DNA of 64,000 bases from Escherichia coli. Lineage in GTDB: Bacteria; Pseudomonadota; Gammaproteobacteria; Enterobacterales; Enterobacteriaceae. Below, piece after piece: positions 1,601 to 28,169 of this stretch. Numbering within the stretch: the stretch's first letter is position 1; each line of letters opens with the position of its first letter. Both the position numbers and the translations under genes were made by a program. Where the stretch lies: the NCBI RefSeq assembly GCF_003790525.1, contig NZ_CP033633.1, one strand, 5' to 3'. Below the pieces are notes generated by a model. That model worked only from the letters and a program-made list of their open reading frames with translations. It was not told the origin of the DNA and made no database searches.

Positions 1601-4600
1601 ATGAATAAGAATATACGAATTTTACAATTTCTGGTCAGTATACTTTATTCTGTGCAGTCTCATTTTTCTAGTGCGCAAACAATACAACTGAATGGTAATG
1701 GTATACCTGAAAGTATAACCAGGAGTATTACAGGTGTTGATGGAAACGCGGCGCTTAATATCAGCGTGCCGTATAAAACAAGTTATACTCAAAATATACT
1801 ATCTGTTGAAAGCAGTATTAACATCAAAGGAGGAACAAGCAATACATCAATCGGTGGTGCAGGTGTCTACGGTGAAAACTTTACGCTAAATAATAATGGT
1901 AGTGTTTGGGGAGGAGATGGATATAATGGTGGAATTGCTGTTAGTGGCAACAAAATATCTATAAACAATTACAGAAATGTATATGGGGGTAATGGTCTTG
2001 GTGGCTCAGGAAGTAGCGGAGGTGCAGGGTTAAGCGGGGATGATATTATAGTTGATAATTACAGAAGTATATACGGAGGTGATGATGTAGGTGGGACAGG
2101 TGGTTCCGGTGTAACCGGTAGCAATATTACAGTGCATAATTCCGGAGGAATATTGGGCGGTAATGGCGTAAACGGTGGTGATGGTATTAATGGTAGTAAT
2201 CTTTTCATTACTAACGACAACATGATATCTGGAGGATATGGAATAAAACAAGGGGGAGATGCTATTTCTGGAAATCAAATCACTTTGAATAATAACGGTA
2301 TTGTTCAGGGGGGATATGGCCCCGACGGTGGTTGCTCTGTTTATGGAGAAGATATCCATATTAATAATCATGGTAATCTTTCAGGATTATATAATAGCCA
2401 AAAAGATGCTTATAATACATCAATAATTTTTTCTGGCGGGTATAATTCATTAGATATTTATTCAGATTCTGTGATTAATGGTGATATTAAACTAGCTAGT
2501 ATACCTGTTAATGGTACAAATGAATTAATTATTAAGAACATCAATAACGCAACAGCAATTAATGGTGGGCTAATGATTGGGAATGGCTCATCTGTTTATC
2601 TGTCAGGCAAGAACTCCATTTTTAACGGAAATATAAGTATTGATGAAGACGCATCTATGAACCTGTCTGTAGGAAATGCTAATGTTCACGCAAATACTAT
2701 TACATTAAAAAGTGATTCATGGCTTAATATAGACACATCAATTAAGAACTGGACTCAGGACTATTACACATTATTGTCGTCAGACACAGGTATCTCGATC
2801 GCTGATAATAGTCACATTGTACAATACAATGTATTACTGACAGAAGGTGCTGAAAGTTATGTTTATACGTCTTTAAATGACGACGATAACAAACTGATAT
2901 CCATGCTGAGATGGAATAATACAAAAGGGATGGGATATGGAACCTTTAATATAGAAAAAGATGCCACTCTGAACATAGGCGTTTCTCTTTCCGATAATCT
3001 TTCACCTTTATTATATGATGGCTGGGACGGCAAAAGTCTGACAAAATCAGGTAATGGTACTCTTATACTTTCTGCAACAAACAATTATACAGGAAATACA
3101 GAGGTTAAATCTGGCGTATTAATTCTTGCTGCACCTGATGCTCTTGGTCGGACTGAGTATTTATATTTATCCCGTGGCGCAGAACTGGATATGAATGGGT
3201 ATCCTCAGACAATAAGCAAACTACTGACGGCTGCAGGCTCTGTGCTGAACATTCATGGCGGAAGTCTGATACTGAATAATGGAGGAGAATCTGCAGGTAC
3301 TATTGCAGGGGATGGTTCTCTGAACATAAATGGGGGAATGCTTGATATAACGGGTAATAATCGTAATTTTTCCGGTGTTTTTACCGTGAATAAGGGGGCT
3401 CATTTGGCTGTATCCACGGCTGATAATCTGGGGACAGCCTTTGTTGATAACTATGGCACATTAACTCTGAACAGTACATCAGCATGGCAGCTTACCAACA
3501 ATATCAGTGGTTATGGTAATGTTCGCAAGACGGGAGCAGGTGCACTGAACATTAGCGATAACGCAAAATGGAGCGGGATGACAGATATTATTCAGGGGAC
3601 AGTGATACTGGGGAACGCAGATTCACCGGTGATGCTCGGCAGTAACCAGGTCATTGTTGAAGAGCAGGGCAAACTCTCCGGGTTTGGGGGCGTTGCAGGA
3701 AATCTGAGCAATAGTGGTATAGTCGATCTCACTACATATATGCCGGGTAATATACTGACTGTCGGAGGGAATTACACTGGCAGAAATGGACTTATTCTCC
3801 TCCAGACAGAAACAGGTGGTGACAATTCGAAAACAGATCGTCTGGTGATTAAAGGTAATGCCAGTGGCCGTACCCGTGTCGCTGTTACTCAGGCCGGTGG
3901 TTCTGGTGCAGAGACACTTAATGGGATTGAAGTGATTCACGTCAGTGGCAATGCTGATAATGCTGAATTCATTCAGACGGAACGTATTACAGCCGGAGCT
4001 TATGATTACATACTGAAACGTGGTCAGGGGATTAACAGCACTAACTGGTATCTGATTAGCAGAAAAGACATTCCTGTACCACAACCTGAAGCTGTACCGG
4101 AAAACCATGATAATAATTTGCGTCCTGAGGCAGGTAGCTATGTTGCCAGTATTGCTGCTGCAAATAATCTGTTTGTAACGAATCTGTATGAACGACAGGG
4201 ACAGGAGTTGTATATCAGCCACATGACAGGAGAAGAAAATGAAGCAGGTATCTGGATGTATAATAAAGGAAAACATAATCGCTGGCGTGACAACAGTAGT
4301 CAGCTGAGAACCCGGGGGAATAGCTACGTTGTGTTAATAGGGGGAGATATAGCTCAGTGGAGCCTGAATGGTACCGATCGCTGGCATACAGGTATGATGG
4401 CTGGCTATGGTCATAATAATAACAGTACGAATGCCCTGAGCACCGGATACCATTCGGAAGGAAGAATGAATGGATACACAGCGGGTCTTTATGCAACATG
4501 GTATGCCAATGATGAAACACACAATGGTTCTTATCTTGATAGCTGGCTGCAATACAGCTGGTTTGATAATCATATAAATGGAGAACGGCTGCCTGCTGAG

Positions 4601-5098: not shown

Positions 5099-5244
5099 TG
5101 TGTCTTTACATTATAAATATCCTTCACAAAATATTGTTGATAAGACATGGTTAGGTGGTGAGCTGCCTCGGAAAATATGACGACAGTAATGATTTCTAAG
5201 AGATTTGAAATGCGTTGATAACAAAATCTGAAATATAGGAGTCT

Positions 5245-6030
5245 GTTTAGGAGAGCCTGTTTAGGATTCTGTGTAAATGCCTTTTCTCAGAAGTGACCGT
5301 CCAGGCGGTCACCGAACTCGATAATAAAGCGGCTCATTGCCATTCGCCAGTCCTTCAACGGCATCGTCCATTTCTGGGACGCAGACTGGATTGCCAGCCA
5401 CACCACTTTTTTCACCGAGTCGTCTGTCGGGAACACTTTACGCTTTTTGATCGCATGGCGGATCACGCTGTTTAGCGACTCGATGGCATTCGTCGTATAG
5501 ATCACTTTGCGGATGTCCGTTGGATAAGCGAAGAACGTGGCAAGATTCGGCCAGTTAGCCTGCCAGCTTCGGCTTATCTGAGGATAGCGACTGTCCCAGG
5601 CCGCAGCGAACGCTTCCAGTGCCTGCTGACCTGCCTCTTCCGTGGGAGCCTGATAAATCGCTTTCAGGTCGCGAGTGACGGCTTTGTAGTCCTTCCATGA
5701 CACGAAGCGCAGGCTGTTGCGCACCATATGCACGATGCATAACTGGATGCGGGCCTTCGGATATACTGTGTTGATGGCATCCGGGAAGCCTTTCAGGCCA
5801 TCCACACAGGCGATGAGGATATCGTTCAGACCGCGGTTTTTCAGTTCAGTCAGCACATTGAGCCAGAACTTCGCCCCTTCATTTTCGGCCAGCCACATAC
5901 CCAGCAGTTCTTTCTGACCTTCGATATTGATGCCCAGTGCCAGGAACACCGATTTGTTGATGACGCGACTGTCCTGCCGAACTTTCAGGACGATACAGTC
6001 AAGATAAACAATTGATAAACAGCATCCAGT
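5245..6030 (-). mobile_element. IS256-family element fragment, copy 1 (transposase 3' two-thirds, 5287-~6000; N-terminal part replaced)
   Basis: ORF 5287-6114 encodes ...ALGINIEGQKELLGMW...LIACVDGLKGFPDAI...CIVHMVRNSLRFVSWKDYKAV... typical of IS256/mutator transposases; same sequence recurs at 10491 and 57069. Confidence 0.7.
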
Positions 6031-9114: not shown

Positions 9115-10473
9115 ATGAAAAGAAAAATTATTCCTGTGCTAATCGGTTGTACGCTCTCTTTCTCTGCCCTGGCGGCACAACCTACGGCTGAGCGCTATGT
9201 CGTCAGTTTTCCAGAAGGCACGCACGTGAACTACGCCGGCGCATTTGCTAGTGCATTCCCGAACGGCCTTCCGGTTGGGATAGGTTCTGGCCTGCTGTTC
9301 ACCGGTAAACAGGGCGATGCCCTGACATTCGCAACCATTACCGATCGCGGTCCGAACGCGGATTCACCGAAAGAGGGGAAAAACGAAACTAAAATTTTCG
9401 TTACGCCAGATTTCGCGCCGCTGCTGATGACGATTCGTGTACAAAACGGCAAAGCGGAGGCCATCGATCCCCGTCCTCTGCATGACGATAAAGGCGCGAT
9501 CAACGGTCTGCCGCTGGCAAGTGACGTGATTGGATCCACCAATGAAGTGGCCTTCAGCGACACGTTACATAGACTGAAGGGGGATAATCGCGGGCTGGAT
9601 ACGGAAGGGATCACTCCGGATGGTAAAGGAGGTTACTGGCTGTGCGATGAGTATGGCCCGTTCCTGATTAACATCGACAGTAAAGGGAAAATCCTGGCAA
9701 TCCACGGTCCGCAGGCGGCGGAAGGGGAAAAAGTGATTGCGGGCGGTTTGCCAAATATCCTCAAATGGCGTCAGGCGAACCGCGGCTTTGAAGGCCTCAC
9801 CCGTATGCCGGACGGGCGTATTATTGCCGCCGTGCAAAGTACGCTGGATATCGACGCTAAGAGCAAGGAAAAGGCGCTGTTTACGCGTCTGGTGAGCTTC
9901 GATCCGGCAAGCGGAAAAACCGCGATGTACGGTTATCCTATCGACAGCGCGGCCTACAGCAAAAACAGCGACGCTAAAATCGGAGACATCGTGGCGCTCG
10001 ATAACCAGCGCATCCTGCTGATCGAACAGGGAAGAGATAAAAACAACAGAATGCGTAACCTGATTTACGAGGTCGATCTCAATAAGGCGAGCGACCTGTC
10101 AGGCTTCGACAAGCCGGGTGAGTATCCGGAGTTTGATGATGAGAAAACCCTGTCACAGCGAGGCATTACCCTTGCGCAGAAAACGCAGGTTGTTGATCTG
10201 CGCTCCTTGGGCTGGCAGCAGGAGAAGGCTGAAGGGTTGGCGCTGATCGACAGCAAAACGCTGGCGGTGGCGAACGATAACGACTTTGGCGTGAAGGTGG
10301 CGATGCAACATCCGGTTGAGGGCAAGACATTCAAGGATTATCGGGTGAACGCGGAAGGAAAGCTGACGCTTGACGACAAGCAGGTTGAAACGACCCTCAG
10401 AGTGAAGCCACTGGAGAAACCGGAGTCTGACAGTGAACTGTGGATTGTGACGCTGCCGGAAGCGTTGAAATAA
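9115..10473 (+). CDS. secreted protein, phytase-like esterase family (tentative)
   Basis: Signal peptide MKRKIIPVLIGCTLSFSALAA; 452 aa; family assignment from memory of conserved blocks only. Confidence 0.5.
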   Translation: MKRKIIPVLIGCTLSFSALAAQPTAERYVVSFPEGTHVNYAGAFASAFPNGLPVGIGSGLLFTGKQGDALTFATITDRGPNADSPKEGKNETKIFVTPDFAPLLMTIRVQNGKAEAIDPRPLHDDKGAINGLPLASDVIGSTNEVAFSDTLHRLKGDNRGLDTEGITPDGKGGYWLCDEYGPFLINIDSKGKILAIHGPQAAEGEKVIAGGLPNILKWRQANRGFEGLTRMPDGRIIAAVQSTLDIDAKSKEKALFTRLVSFDPASGKTAMYGYPIDSAAYSKNSDAKIGDIVALDNQRILLIEQGRDKNNRMRNLIYEVDLNKASDLSGFDKPGEYPEFDDEKTLSQRGITLAQKTQVVDLRSLGWQQEKAEGLALIDSKTLAVANDNDFGVKVAMQHPVEGKTFKDYRVNAEGKLTLDDKQVETTLRVKPLEKPESDSELWIVTLPEALK

Positions 10474-10490
10474 GTTTATAAGGTACGGAC

Positions 10491-11268
10491 AGGAGCCTGT
10501 TTAGGATTCTGTGTAAATGCCTTTTCTCAGAAGTGACCGTCCAGGCGGTCACCGAACTCGATAATAAAGCGGCTCATTGCCATTCGCCAGTCCTTCAACG
10601 GCATCGTCCATTTCTGGGACGCAGACTGGATTGCCAGCCACACCACTTTTTTCACCGAGTCGTCTGTCGGGAACACTTTACGCTTTTTGATCGCATGGCG
10701 GATCACGCTGTTTAGCGACTCGATGGCATTCGTCGTATAGATCACTTTGCGGATGTCCGTTGGATAAGCGAAGAACGTGGCAAGATTCGGCCAGTTCCTG
10801 CCAGCTTCGGCTTATCTGAGGATAGCGACTGTCCCAGGCCGCAGCGAACACTTCCAGTGCCTGCTGACCTGCCTCTTCCGTGGGAGCCTGATAAATCGCT
10901 TTCAGGTCGAGAGTGACGGCCTTGTAGTCCTTCCATGACACGAAGCGCAGGCTGTTGCGCACCATATGCACGATGCATAACTGGATGCGGGCCTTCGGAT
11001 ATACTGTGTTGATGGCATCCGGGAAGCCTTTCAGGCCATCCACACAGGCGATGAGGATATCGTTCAGACCGCGGTTTTTCAGTTCAGTCAGCACATTGAG
11101 CCAGAACTTCGCCCCTTCATTTTCGGCCAGCCACATACCCAGCAGTTCCTTCTGACCTTCGATATTGATGCCCAGTGCCAGGAACACCGATTTGTTGATG
11201 ACGCGACTGTCCTGCCGAACTTTCAGGACGATACAGTCAAGATAAACAATGGGTAAACAGCATCCAGT
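10491..11268 (-). mobile_element. IS256-family element fragment, copy 2 (transposase frameshifted: ORFs 10527-10745 and 10678-11187)
   Basis: Near-identical to 5245-6030 but with a 2-bp deletion near 10797 splitting the ORF. Confidence 0.7.
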
Positions 11269-22376: not shown

Positions 22377-22880
22377 TTATTGATAGTGTTTTATGTTCAG
22401 ATAATGCCCGATGACTTTGTCATGCAGCTCCACCGATTTTGAGAACGACAGCGACTTCCGTCCCAGCCGTGCCAGGTGCTGCCTCAGATTCAGGTTATGC
22501 CGCTCAATTCGCTGCGTATATCGCTTGCTGATTACGTGCAGCTTTCCCTTCAGGCGGGATTCATACAGCGGCCAGCCATCCGTCATCCATATCACCACGT
22601 CAAAGGGTGACAGCAGGCTCATAAGACGCCCCAGCGTCGCCATCGTGCGTTCACCGAATACGTGCGCAACAACCGTCTTCCGGAGCCTGTCATACGCGTA
22701 AAACAGCCAGCGCTGGCGCGATTTAGCCCCGACATAGCTCCACTGTTCGTCCATTTCCGCGCAGACGATGACGTCACTGCCCGGCTGTATGCGCGAGGTT
22801 ACCGACTGCGGCCTGAGTTTTTTAAGTGACGTAAAATCGTGTTGAGGACAACGCCCATAATGCGGGCTGTTGCCCGGCAT
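22377..22880 (-). CDS. insB: IS1 InsB
   Basis: Near-identical to 20359-20862. Confidence 0.85.
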
Positions 22881-23074
22881 CCAACGCCATTCATGGCCAT
22901 ATCAATGATTTTCTGGTGCGTACCGGGTTGAGAAGCGGTGTAAGTGAACTGCAGTTGCCATGTTTTACGGCAGTGAGAGCAGAGATAGCGCTGATGTCCG
23001 GCGGTGCTTTTGCCGTTACGCACCACCCCGTCAGTAGCTGAACAGGAGGGACAGCTGATAGAAACAGAAGCCAC
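22799..23074 (-). CDS. insA: IS1 InsA
   Basis: Near-identical to 20165-20440. Confidence 0.9.
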
Positions 23075-24078: not shown

Positions 24079-25560
24079 TCATACGGGAGATGGCGGTTCC
24101 CAGCGTTTATCCTGCTCCGGCGGAGGCAGTGATGCGTCATCGTTGCTGTTCGCCGCGATATAATCGCGGTAGTAGCGTTCACTTCCTTCCCGGTGATGAT
24201 CCACATCCGGTCGTGTAATCCTGTAGTCTTCGTGACCGGTACGGCCTGTCACATTATGCCAGGCAACCATTTCAGCAAAGACCTGGTTAAATTGTTTGTC
24301 GTTTCCTTCTGGTTCAAAGCCCATTCTGGGATCACGCTCAAACAATACAGGTGCAATCAAATCCAGTTTATCTGCCAGCGCATTGCGGTCATGGTGATTA
24401 CGGAAAACAACCCTGTCACCATAATCCGTACAGACAAACTCTCCCGTCCGACGGTCACGGAAACGAACACTCCCGTTCTTCTGCAAACGGGCCTCGAGAT
24501 CACCGGTATTACCGTATACCGGCGTTCCGCCCGGTTCACAAAGCACGACACAGCGGTCTGTTGTTGTTGTGCGTGACTTGTCTTTACGGCGATCGCGATA
24601 ATCCCAGCCTCTCAACTGCGATACAGCAGCCCTGTCTCCCTGAGCAGCCTGAATTTCGACCCACTGACGGTAAGAGGGTGGATACCACTTCCCGTCAGCA
24701 ATAAGTTTCTGTCGCTCATCCCTGATGTCTTCTTTCAGCCTGATCAACGCCTGCATTCGCTGAACTTCTGCAATGTGATAATGCAGCTTACGTAATGCCG
24801 GATCATCGTACTGCGCACGAATGTGTGACTTCCGCAGACGGCATGCCTGATGAATTTCCCGACAACGTTCCCCATTACGCAGATCTGGTTTACGCCATTG
24901 TTCACGCCATGCCAGATAGCGGGCACGCAGGTCAGCACGGGCCTCAGCTCTGGCTTCACGTCGCTGCCGGCGCAGCATTGGGTCACGTTTACTGCTGACC
25001 CCGTACCTGTCACTGACAGCCAGCTCCGGGTTATAGCGACTTTCAGGTTGCACCCTGTCAAACAAATCTGCTGGGGCACTCACAAAAGGTCCGGCCTGTG
25101 GCTCTGCACGCCCCAGAGTCAGATCAGGATGAATGCTGCTGGCCTTCACCGGCGTTTGCTCATGATTAAAGGCATCAACGACAACAAGCCCGTGATGTTG
25201 TTTCTGTAGCATCAGTCCCTGTTGTGCAAACAGCTCATGACAACGCTGCCAGGTAAACTCACCCTGTGTGATCATTTCTTCAATCTGAGGGCTACAATGG
25301 CTGATGCTGTATCCCCACAGACTTTCTTTATCAGAAAACAGTTCGCGTTTGATATCCCCCTGCGGCCCCGTGCCTGTACGCATACGGTGCCATTCTTTAT
25401 CGGTCGCAGGACAGCTCTCCATACGACGACCACGGAAGCGTTCTGTTGGCGTAACCTGGCGGAAAATATCTGTTGGTACAGGCTGCCAGCCACCATCGAG
25501 TTGATTCACATTGTCGAGCGTCAGCAGTGACCATACGGTGTCAGCACGAACGGGAGTCTG
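24079..25560 (-). pseudogene. relaxase fragment: paralogue of the C-terminal ~490 aa of the NikB-like relaxase at 53701-56403; nuclease domain missing
   Basis: Long collinear similarity (QTPVRADxxWxLLTLxN...WHRMRTGxGPQGxIKRExFSDKESLWGY...) to the 900-aa relaxase but lacking the HxH relaxase motifs. Confidence 0.65.
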
Positions 25561-25599
25561 GTTATGATATTTTTCGGATCCCGGTGAAAAAAGAGAGAA

Positions 25600-25720
25600 A
25601 CATGCAGATACCATGCATATCCATATGTTTGGCATCTGCATATGACAGGCATACGCATATCTCACACATCTGCATATCTATAACATATACATATGTATCA
25701 CATCTGCATATACTAAACAT
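25600..25720. repeat. array of ~6 imperfect direct repeats with 17-bp periodicity (ATCTGCATAT-N7)
   Basis: GCATAT cores at 25615, 25638, 25655, 25672, (25689 variant), 25706. Confidence 0.5.
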
Positions 25721-25750
25721 ATATAAAAGCCGTCTTGCCAGGAGGAAGAC

Positions 25751-25981
25751 ATGAGAACCGTATCTATTTTCAAAAATGGCAATAACCGCGCGATCCGTCT
25801 GCCCCGCGATCTGGATTTTGAGGGGGTGAGTGAGCTGGAGATTGTACGGGAAGGGGACAGAATCATTCTGCGTCCCCTCCGCCCGAGCTGGAGCTCATTC
25901 CTGGAGCTAGAAAAGGCCGATCCGGGCTTTATGACGGAACGCGAGGACGTTGTCTGCGACGAAGGACGATTTAACCTGTGA
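25751..25981 (+). CDS. vapB: VapB/VagC-type antitoxin (AbrB/SpoVT fold)
   Basis: 76-aa ORF MRTVSIFKNGNNRAIRLPRDL...; overlaps downstream PIN toxin. Confidence 0.8.
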   Translation: MRTVSIFKNGNNRAIRLPRDLDFEGVSELEIVREGDRIILRPLRPSWSSFLELEKADPGFMTEREDVVCDEGRFNL

Positions 25982-26394
25982 ACAAGATCTATATGCTCGA
26001 CACGAACATCTGCTCGTTCATCATGCGCGAGCAGCCTGAAGCAGTGCTTAAGAATCTGGAGCAGGCGGTGCTGCGCGGTCACCGTATAGTGGTCTCGGCC
26101 ATCACCTACTCCGAGATGCGCTTCGGCGCCACCGGTCCAAAGGCATCGCCACGCCACGTGCAGCTGGTTGACGCGTTCTGCGCCCGTCTCGATGCCATCC
26201 TGCCCTGGGATCGCGCTGCGGTGGATGCAACCACGGAGGTTAAGGTGGCGCTGCGCCTCGCCGGCACGCCGATCGGTCCGAACGACACGGCGATCGCCGG
26301 GCACGCCATCGCCACCGGGGCAATACTGGTGACGAATAATGTGAGAGAGTTTGAGCGGGTGCCTGGACTGGTACTGGAAGACTGGGCAGGATAA
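25978..26394 (+). CDS. vapC: VapC/VagD PIN-domain toxin
   Basis: 138-aa ORF MLDTNICSF... with acidic PIN residues; hairpin terminator at 26402-26425. Confidence 0.85.
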   Translation: MNKIYMLDTNICSFIMREQPEAVLKNLEQAVLRGHRIVVSAITYSEMRFGATGPKASPRHVQLVDAFCARLDAILPWDRAAVDATTEVKVALRLAGTPIGPNDTAIAGHAIATGAILVTNNVREFERVPGLVLEDWAG

Positions 26395-26955: not shown

Positions 26956-27282
26956 ATGACTAAAAATACTCGTTTTTCCCCCGAAGTCCGTCAGAGGGCG
27001 ATTCGTATGGTTCTGGAAAGTCAGGGCGAATATGACTCACAGTGGGCGGCAATTTGTTCCATTGCCCCAAAGATTGGCTGTACACCGGAGACTCTGCGTG
27101 TCTGGGTACGCCAGCATGAGCGGGATACCGGAGGCGGTGATGGCGGGCTCACCACCGCTGAACGTCAGCGTCTGAAAGAGCTGGAACGTGAAAATCGTGA
27201 ACTGCGCCGCAGTAACGATATCCTTCGCCAGGCTTCCGCTTATTTTGCGAAGGCGGAGTTCGACCGCCTCTGGAAAAAGTGA
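26956..27282 (+). CDS. IS629 transposase OrfA
   Basis: Identical protein to 7383-7709. Confidence 0.85.
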
Positions 27283-28169
27283 TGCCACTGCTGGATAAGC
27301 TGCGTAAGCTGTACGGGGTCGGACCGGTATGCAGTGAACTACATATTGCCCCGTCAACGTATTACCACTGTCAGCAACAGCGACATCATCCTTATAAACG
27401 CAGTGCCCGTGCGCAGCGCGATGACTGGCTGAAGAAAGAGATACTGCGCGTATACGATGGGAATCATCAGGTATATGGTGTGCGTAAAGTCTGGCGTCAG
27501 TTGTTACGGGAAGGAATCAGGGTAGCCAGATGTACAGTGGCGCGCCTCATGGCGGTTATGGGACTTGCCGGTGTTCTCCGGGGTAAAAAGGTCCGCACTA
27601 CCGTCAGCCGGAAAGCCGTTGCCGCAGGCGACCGCGTAAACCGTCAGTTTGTGGCAGAACGTCCTGACCAGTTGTGGGTGGCTGATTTTACTTACGTCAG
27701 CACATGGCAGGGGGTCGTCTATGTGGCGTTCATCATTGATGTGTTTGCCGGATACATCGTGGGGTGGCGGGTCTCATCGTCTATGGAAACGACATTCGTG
27801 CTGGATGCTCTGGAGCAGGCGTTATGGGCCCGTCGACCGTCCGGCACAGTCCATCACAGTGATAAAGGTTCTCAGTATGTATCGCTGGCCTACACACAGC
27901 GGCTTAAGGAAGCCGGATTACTGGCATCAACAGGAAGTACTGGTGACTCGTATGACAACGCGATGGCGGAGAGCATCAATGGCCTTTACAAAGCGGAGGT
28001 AATACACCGTAAGAGCTGGAAAAACCGGACAGAAGTGGAGCTGGCCACACTCACGTGGGTGGACTGGTATAACAATCGACGATTGCTGGAAAGGCTGGGC
28101 CATATCCCACCGGCAGAAGCAGAAAAAGCTTATTATGCTTCCATCGGAAACGATGATCTGGCAGCCTGA
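27279..28169 (+). CDS. IS629 transposase OrfB
   Basis: Identical protein to 6496-7386. Confidence 0.85.

Follow-up and report, generated by a model that had tools for sequence, protein, structure and literature searches.

A 119-bp array of tandem repeats is located at 25605-25723 of the window (the whole stretch of DNA that was analysed, 64,000 nucleotides) and is read here as an expanded autoregulatory operator of the vapBC (vagCD-type) operon, probably serving VapB4C4 complexes. From comparison of homologous loci this reading is given a probability of about 0.8. It had been one of the options named in the original prediction, and it is favoured by repeat units that overlap the predicted -35 and -10 hexamers, co-occur with vapB, show a binding-type footprint, and follow the half-site logic of known vapO operators. 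On enterobacterial resistance and virulence plasmids, modules of this type rank among the commonest addiction systems; their control region appears undescribed, VapBC regulation having been worked out on two-operator systems. In the literature searched, neither a description of a vagCD/vapBC repeat array nor a binding or expression experiment for this VapB subfamily was found.

Structure of the repeat array

Seven 17-bp units run head to tail in the array; six are strong and one is degenerate. The unit is CATATG-N5-CAT(A/C)TG, two near-palindromic hexamers spaced 11 bp. Units start at 25605, 25622, 25639, 25656, 25673, 25690, and 25707, follow each other without gaps, and carry 0-2 mismatches each.

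25605-25621 (+), unit 1 (degenerate), CAGATAccatgCATATC; two mismatches, in the 17-bp register
25622-25689 (+), units 2-5, upstream of the core promoter, CATATGtttggCATCTG, CATATGacaggCATACG, CATATCtcacaCATCTG, CATATCtataaCATATA; assigned by register, mismatches, and position-specific conservation in 18 homologues
25690-25706 (+), unit 6, CATATGtatcaCATCTG; reaches into the 3' end of the -35 hexamer and occupies the promoter spacer
25707-25723 (+), unit 7, CATATActaaaCATATA; overlaps the -10 hexamer and the probable transcription start

All six repeat positions listed in the original prediction are correct: the window sequence has GCATAT at 25615, 25638, 25655, 25672, and 25706, and at 25689 its variant ACATAT. 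The array spans 25605-25723 and so runs slightly past the extent proposed there, 25600-25720. Three exact copies of ATCTGCATAT are present (at 25634, 25668, and 25702), Tandem Repeats Finder detects, over 25631-25723, a period of 17 bp and a super-period of 34 bp, and a repeat search from 25599 returns six copies spaced exactly 17 bp.

The unit pattern is matched 26 times in the 64-kb window, compared with 10.8 +/- 4.3 times in shuffled sequence; none of 100 shuffles reached 26, and half of the matches (13 of 26, both strands) lie in register inside the 119 bp of the array. Within 300 bp upstream of vapB, six units are found at up to two mismatches, against 0.03 expected from shuffles. The G+C content of the array is 35%, that of the whole window 51%.

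Other readings of the repeats as such were set aside. A structured RNA is rejected because Rfam returned nothing beyond two matches at chance level to eukaryotic miRNA families (E = 0.6), and because most of the array lies upstream of the probable transcription start. Short open reading frames do cross the array (25473-25754, +; 25562-25720, -; and an N-terminal extension of the nikB frame to 25665), but a coding sequence is rejected, given indels of 17, 34, and 68 bp among homologues and conservation in a 12+5-bp rather than a codon-like pattern. In Klebsiella plasmids, a 153-amino-acid RefSeq 'hypothetical protein' (WP_014343465.1) is annotated over the array and the vapB start (L002, 4766-5227, -); the 17- and 34-bp indels and the non-codon conservation mark it as probably a spurious gene call. 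The Fur-box hexamer is NATWAT, and an array of Fur-box-like hexamers is rejected because this pattern does not fit CATATG.

The vapBC operon and its promoter

25686-25714 (+), predicted sigma-70 promoter of vapBC: -35 TATACA (25686-25691), 17-bp spacer, -10 TATACT (25709-25714); consensus prediction
25740-25745 (+), ribosome-binding site of vapB, AGGAGG, read from the sequence
25751-25981 (+), vapB (vagC-type) antitoxin, 76 amino acids, AbrB/MazE-type swapped-hairpin DNA-binding domain
25978-26394 (+), vapC (vagD-type) PIN-domain toxin, 138 amino acids
26399-26423 (+), GC-rich, terminator-like hairpin GTAAGGCCGCCCCCGACGGCCTTAC, 5 bp past the vapC stop; consensus match

VapB is matched by NCBIfam TA_anti_VapB (NF040493; 88 bits, cut-off 60) and Pfam PF04014 (E = 6e-9), its closest PDB relatives being 6IFM_B (E = 3.5e-7) and 3ZVK_E. 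VapC is matched by the Pfam PIN domain (PF01850, E = 9e-15) and by a tRNA(fMet)-specific endonuclease VapC in PDB (E = 1e-28). Its matches to NCBIfam VapC models reach E = 1e-35 and stay under the equivalog cut-offs; for the tRNA(fMet)-specific endonuclease equivalogs the scores are 107.9 bits (NF010285, cut-off 143) and 122.8 bits (NF047863, cut-off 140), a strong relationship that stays below both curated thresholds. The two genes overlap by 4 bp (25978-25981) and, by these NCBIfam, Pfam, and PDB matches and this overlap, form a VapBC type II toxin-antitoxin module.

The predicted promoter is the sole promoter-like site upstream of vapB and lies inside units 5-7, its -10 hexamer TATACT being conserved across the VapB family; transcription of vapBC would start near 25721. 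The hairpin downstream of vapC is possibly a bidirectional terminator at the right end of the module.

Linkage of the units to vapB

Eighty genomic loci encoding VapC relatives (66-93% identity) were fetched and the DNA upstream of each vapB was extracted; 81 upstream regions were compared, with VapB homologues at 60-100% amino acid identity. At least one 17-bp unit is present upstream of vapB in 79 of the 81 regions, from Vibrio and Pseudomonas to Enterobacterales. The 260 bp upstream of vapB hold 23 units per kb and 487 kb of flanking DNA 0.30 per kb, a 76-fold difference in density, and no chain of two or more units was found away from vapB in these flanks. Hosts with boxes beside vapB include Vibrio, Pseudomonas, Shewanella, Xenorhabdus, and Klebsiella, on chromosomes as well as plasmids.

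The gene upstream of the array varies: a HEPN nuclease gene (L001), hypothetical genes (L002), ccdAB (L085, L086), nikB (the window, L003), or chromosomal DNA. Whatever this neighbour, the array is always directly upstream of vapB, and the distance from the -10 to the vapB start changes only by short inserts among homologues. A 951-bp query matched at least 5,000 PLSDB plasmids, with the repeat region covered in 2,729 of these; among complete E. coli genomes, 824 of 5,426 gave a match, at 1,147 plasmid and 18 chromosomal places.

Two arrangements recur. The homologues from Vibrio, Pseudomonas, Azotobacter, and Shewanella have the classical two-operator design, in which two units 38-40 bp apart flank the promoter, one over a TTGACA -35 (CATATGcTTGACATATG), the other just after the TATACT -10; two-unit versions are present in chromosomes, and isolated CATATG-N5-CATATG units with 11-bp spacing also occur in distant homologues. 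Enterobacterial homologues have a compact core, cTATACATATGC-N4-CATCTGCATATACT-N3-CATATGC, preceded by a variable number of upstream units. The core CATATACT-N3-CATATGC at unit 7 is kept in nearly all of them, and unit 6 is the counterpart of the -35-overlapping operator of the distant homologues. As far as sequence can tell, the sites thus behave as vapO-type operators are expected to: they occur together with the gene of the cognate antitoxin, lie across the -35 and -10 of the predicted promoter of their own operon, and consist of paired near-palindromic half-sites about one helical turn apart.

Instead of VapB, the protein on the boxes could be another factor, for instance a regulator of host or plasmid or a nucleoid-associated protein, and the array would then couple vapBC to another circuit. 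The AT-richness of the array (35% G+C) and the conserved element with GATC-containing inverted repeats that adjoins it (see below) would suit such a factor. VapB is nevertheless the only constant partner of the boxes across diverse hosts, chromosomes, and plasmids; its DNA-reading loop is nearly invariant alongside the invariant boxes, and the 487 kb of flanks hold no unit chains elsewhere. Binding by another factor is accordingly regarded as improbable.

Conservation and copy number of the units

The footprint was taken from 18 array-bearing homologues lined up on the -10 without gaps, in which two abutting hexamers form a 12-bp block. Boxes are 91% identical to the consensus and the N5 spacers 58% (Mann-Whitney p = 6e-12). 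The box extends to R-CATATG-C by flanking positions that were not used in selecting units. Each block keeps its own variant across genera (e.g., CATACGCATAT in block 3), upstream blocks are as conserved as proximal ones, and the variants are retained across genera with VapB differing by up to 18%. At the position of unit 1, homologues carry CATAGG-N5-CATATC. Conserved boxes with free spacers support a footprint of the protein-binding type.

Plasmid arrays vary between 3 and 11 units in steps of 17 or 34 bp. The left-boundary element is most often 134 bp from the -10, in the window as well; the other distance classes are 116, 100, about 84, and 202 bp. Arrays of seven units make up the modal length class, with 13 fetched loci and the window. 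Two E. coli IncF plasmids (L085, 1395-1440; L086, 1383-1428) have undergone a clean 68-bp, four-unit contraction relative to L001 (9870-9985). Their deletion endpoints lie in the repeated CCT(G/A)ACATCTGC, and a -35-like TATCCA stands in place of TATACA; they encode the same VapB (WP_001261286.1) as a copy with a full-length array, and the promoter geometry is preserved. Contracted arrays persist in many E. coli plasmids. Because variants that have lost four units persist with an identical VapB, the extra units are dispensable for basic function. The longest array, of about 11 units, is that of a gut isolate (L042, ~2040-2215), with three or four near-perfect 34-bp repeats CATCTGCATATGCCATGCAGATGCATAYCCTGAR in which CATCTGCAT and ATGCAGATG form an inverted pair; its appearance suggests recent amplification.

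These length differences bear on how much of the array would act as operator. Units 6 and 7 might be the only functional ones, with units 1-5 as neutral products of slippage or unequal recombination; copy number does range from 3 to 11 among close relatives in 17- and 34-bp steps, the 68-bp contraction does occur in plasmids with identical VapB, and two units suffice in distant homologues. Neutral repeats would, however, decay or homogenise, whereas the upstream blocks stand at 91% against 58% for the spacers and keep position-specific variants, and the seven-unit class is the mode (13 loci and the window). Neutrality of units 1-5 is therefore judged unlikely, yet it is the most serious of the competing accounts.

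Comparison with published VapBC operators

Structural work on other VapBC systems points to how the boxes of the array may be read. In the R. felis VapBC2-DNA complex (PDB 3ZVK), Asn9 and Gln11 of VapB2 read a near-palindromic A(A/G)TAT-type half-site, with one VapB dimer on each, and Arg16 supports Asn9 and contacts the backbone (PMC3326315). The loop F7-K8-N9-G10-N11-N12-R13...R16 of the present VapB is nearly invariant in 84 homologues, which matches the invariance of the CATATG box. In the alignment it falls on the R. felis residues Asn9, Gln11, and Arg16, and the window VapB shares Asn9, Gly10, and Arg16 with R. felis VapB2. Both systems have a swapped-hairpin antitoxin and palindromic AT-rich half-sites, and the two half-sites bound per octamer in R. 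felis are also proposed for the array. The R. felis crystal differs in holding a single, bent 27-bp operator with about 14 bp between the half-site centres, and its description mentions no tandem array.

In Shigella and Salmonella, VapBC assembles into VapB4C4 octamers, each with a pair of AbrB-type DNA-binding domains. The octamers bind at two operators that cover the -10 and the -35, and regulation depends on the VapB:VapC ratio (PMC3384007, PMC3378870, PMC11796401). In operator oligonucleotides of Shigella, ATATCC/ATATAC boxes occur in pairs spaced 13 bp, and TTGACA overlaps one of the boxes (PMC3384007). The array resembles vapO1/vapO2 (OS1/OS2) of Salmonella LT2 vapBC and of Shigella pMYSH6000/pINV mvpAT in its half-site pairs and ATAT core, and a TTGACA -35 embedded in a box is common to those operators and to homologues of the present family. 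The enteric operators are two and separated, with the Shigella boxes 13 bp apart; the window has seven contiguous units with a box spacing of 11 bp and a copy number that is polymorphic between 3 and 11. The window VapB is itself only a distant relative of the VapB of those systems (PDB 3TND_B and 6SD6_A, E~1e-3; 6IFM_B, E = 3.5e-7). The match of the units to the half-site logic of these operators (PMC3326315, PMC3384007, PMC3378870) supports their reading as VapB operators.

Operators with many sites are familiar from other toxin-antitoxin and plasmid systems: the four HipB operators of hipBA, the ~120-bp multi-site operator of ccdAB, and the 7-bp heptads of omega (pSM19035). These likewise consist of many adjacent short sites that load repressor complexes cooperatively; they differ in fold (HTH, RHH), site sequence, and period, and are without VapB. 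The multi-site principle is thus already known in other toxin-antitoxin families. From every characterised VapBC operator found, the array differs in having seven contiguous rather than two separated sites, 11-bp box spacing, and a polymorphic copy number.

Junction with nikB and origin readings

24079-25568 (-), 3' fragment of nikB, an IncI-type relaxase, ~496 C-terminal codons; not part of the repeat system
25563-25568 (unstranded), junction of the nikB fragment and the vapBC module, TATGAT, a 6-bp microhomology common to both parents; from ungapped comparison with L084 and L001

The nikB fragment is matched by the NCBIfam TraI/MobA(P) relaxase model (E = 1e-49) over profile positions 179-496 only. 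It aligns with an IncI-gamma/K1 plasmid (L084) up to 25568, and the intact gene runs 1.2 kb further; from 25563 on, the sequence is that of the vapBC module of IncF and IncR plasmids. The 6-bp overlap of the two homologies indicates illegitimate recombination at 25563-25568; the PLSDB matches show the break in homology as well. The array is on the vapBC side of this junction and hence belongs to the vapBC module, not to the relaxase. A near-identical arrangement is found in plasmid unnamed1 of E. coli AR_0085 (IncK2/Z), at 99.9% over 951 bp.

The original prediction had also considered that the repeats might be left over from an origin, of replication or of transfer, on the plasmid from which the truncated relaxase came, and had proposed a search for an associated rep gene. 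Iterons of RepFIA, P1, and pSC101-type origins are direct repeats of 17-22 bp within AT-rich plasmid DNA, accompanied by a rep gene, DnaA boxes, and an unwinding element. The array shares with them direct repeats, here with a 17-bp period, in an AT-rich interval on a plasmid. It differs in being tied to vapB, in constant order directly upstream of the gene, and in holding the vapBC promoter, with the -10 inside the last unit; two-unit versions, moreover, sit in chromosomes. Among the genes annotated next to the array in six plasmid contexts there is no rep gene, and no match to the DnaA box TTATCCACA with up to one mismatch occurs on either strand in 25300-25900. With the vapBC promoter embedded, no rep gene annotated, and no DnaA box, iterons of a replication origin, intact or remnant, are very improbable and this reading is rejected.

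A remnant of the IncI-type oriT that belonged to the truncated nikB is less probable still. The array does adjoin the relaxase fragment; nikB homology, however, ends at 25568, 1.2 kb inside the gene, and in intact IncI plasmids nikA (annotated as mobA in the L084 record) and oriT lie beyond that point and so are absent here. The intact nikB-oriT locus of L084 is itself without the array: its + strand has no unit, its - strand a single isolated one. An oriT remnant is rejected on these grounds, and neither form of the origin proposal is upheld.

Proposed mechanism

Under the reading of the array as a VapB operator, each hexamer CATATG (extended, R-CATATG-C) would be the site of one VapB dimer. 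The two hexamers of a unit, 11 bp or about one helical turn apart, would face the same side of the DNA and jointly make up one 17-bp operator, to which one VapB4-VapC4 hetero-octamer could bind by its two DNA-binding domains. The promoter, from the -35 through the spacer and the -10 to the probable start, is covered by units 6 and 7, whose occupancy would sterically block RNA polymerase; as with enteric vapBC, regulation would depend on the VapB:VapC ratio through conditional cooperativity.

Units 1-5 probably arose as extra operator copies by 17- and 34-bp duplication and were then kept by selection. Most likely they would recruit more octamers cooperatively, giving tighter and more switch-like repression, and they would hold a sizeable pool of VapBC on the plasmid. 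At an assumed 10.5 bp per turn, neighbouring units are rotated by about 223 degrees, which would place neighbouring octamers on roughly opposite faces. Boxes of neighbouring units are 6 bp apart, compared with about 10 bp contacted by a VapB dimer in 3ZVK, so that all seven units may not be filled at once. Filling of alternate units would fit the 34-bp super-period; filling of all seven is the alternative.

Shigella VapB bound to DNA is protected from Lon in vitro (PMC11796401). By analogy, the extra operators might also form a plasmid-borne docking platform that stores VapB4C4 octamers and shields VapB from Lon, a speculative extension to which we give low odds. If it held, antitoxin half-life would depend on the presence of plasmid DNA, and plasmid loss would remove the gene together with the protective DNA, with sharper post-segregational killing as the outcome. 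Unit copy number (3-11) would then be an evolvable dial, and shared boxes could mediate cross-talk between paralogous vapBC operons on one plasmid. The seven-unit array and its natural 3- to 11-unit variants constitute a ready-made allelic series, with which operator number could be tested against repression, conditional cooperativity, antitoxin protection, and plasmid stabilisation.

Boundary element, paralogues, and surroundings

25570-25599 (+), right half of the conserved left-boundary element of the vapBC module, TTTTTCGGATCC...GAAAAAAGAGAGAA; conserved just upstream of the array in most array-bearing homologues

In full, the left-boundary element reads AGATCCGG..C-N~6-CTTTTTTCGGATCT-N5-7-GAAAAAGAGAGAA (also TTTTTTCGGATCT...GAAAAAGAGAGAA), as in L002 (4985-5040) and many other loci. 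It is an inverted repeat with 7-bp arms, AGATCCG and CGGATCT, each with a GATC Dam site. The window keeps the right arm only, the left arm AGATCCG having been lost at the junction. It may serve as an insulator, or as the target of a regulator or of recombination.

In a paralogous vapBC lineage, with a VapB 91% identical, about 70 bp are inserted between array and vapB (L001, 9990-10050). The insert is also present in L005 (vapB at 3940), L009, L018, L031, L039, L043, L054, L085, and L086. It holds an extra unit, GGATATGCatcaCATATCCAC, that closely resembles the -10 operator oligonucleotide of Shigella pMYSH6000, GATATACACAAGACATATCCACAT; this likeness suggests promoter-region mosaicism between VapB subfamilies. 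The IncF plasmid pEC9952-1 (L001) has two paralogous vapBC operons 4.9 kb apart (5189-5832 and 10052-10695). As both of its arrays are built from the same boxes, transcriptional cross-regulation is likely.

The segment of nikB fragment and vapBC is flanked in the window by insertion-sequence genes, at 22377-23074 and 26956-28169. The former comprises open reading frames that, from their translations, we take to be IS1-like insA/insB; the latter is annotated as an IS3-family transposase in L003, a near-identical plasmid. Such bracketing fits a mosaic region assembled by insertion-sequence activity.
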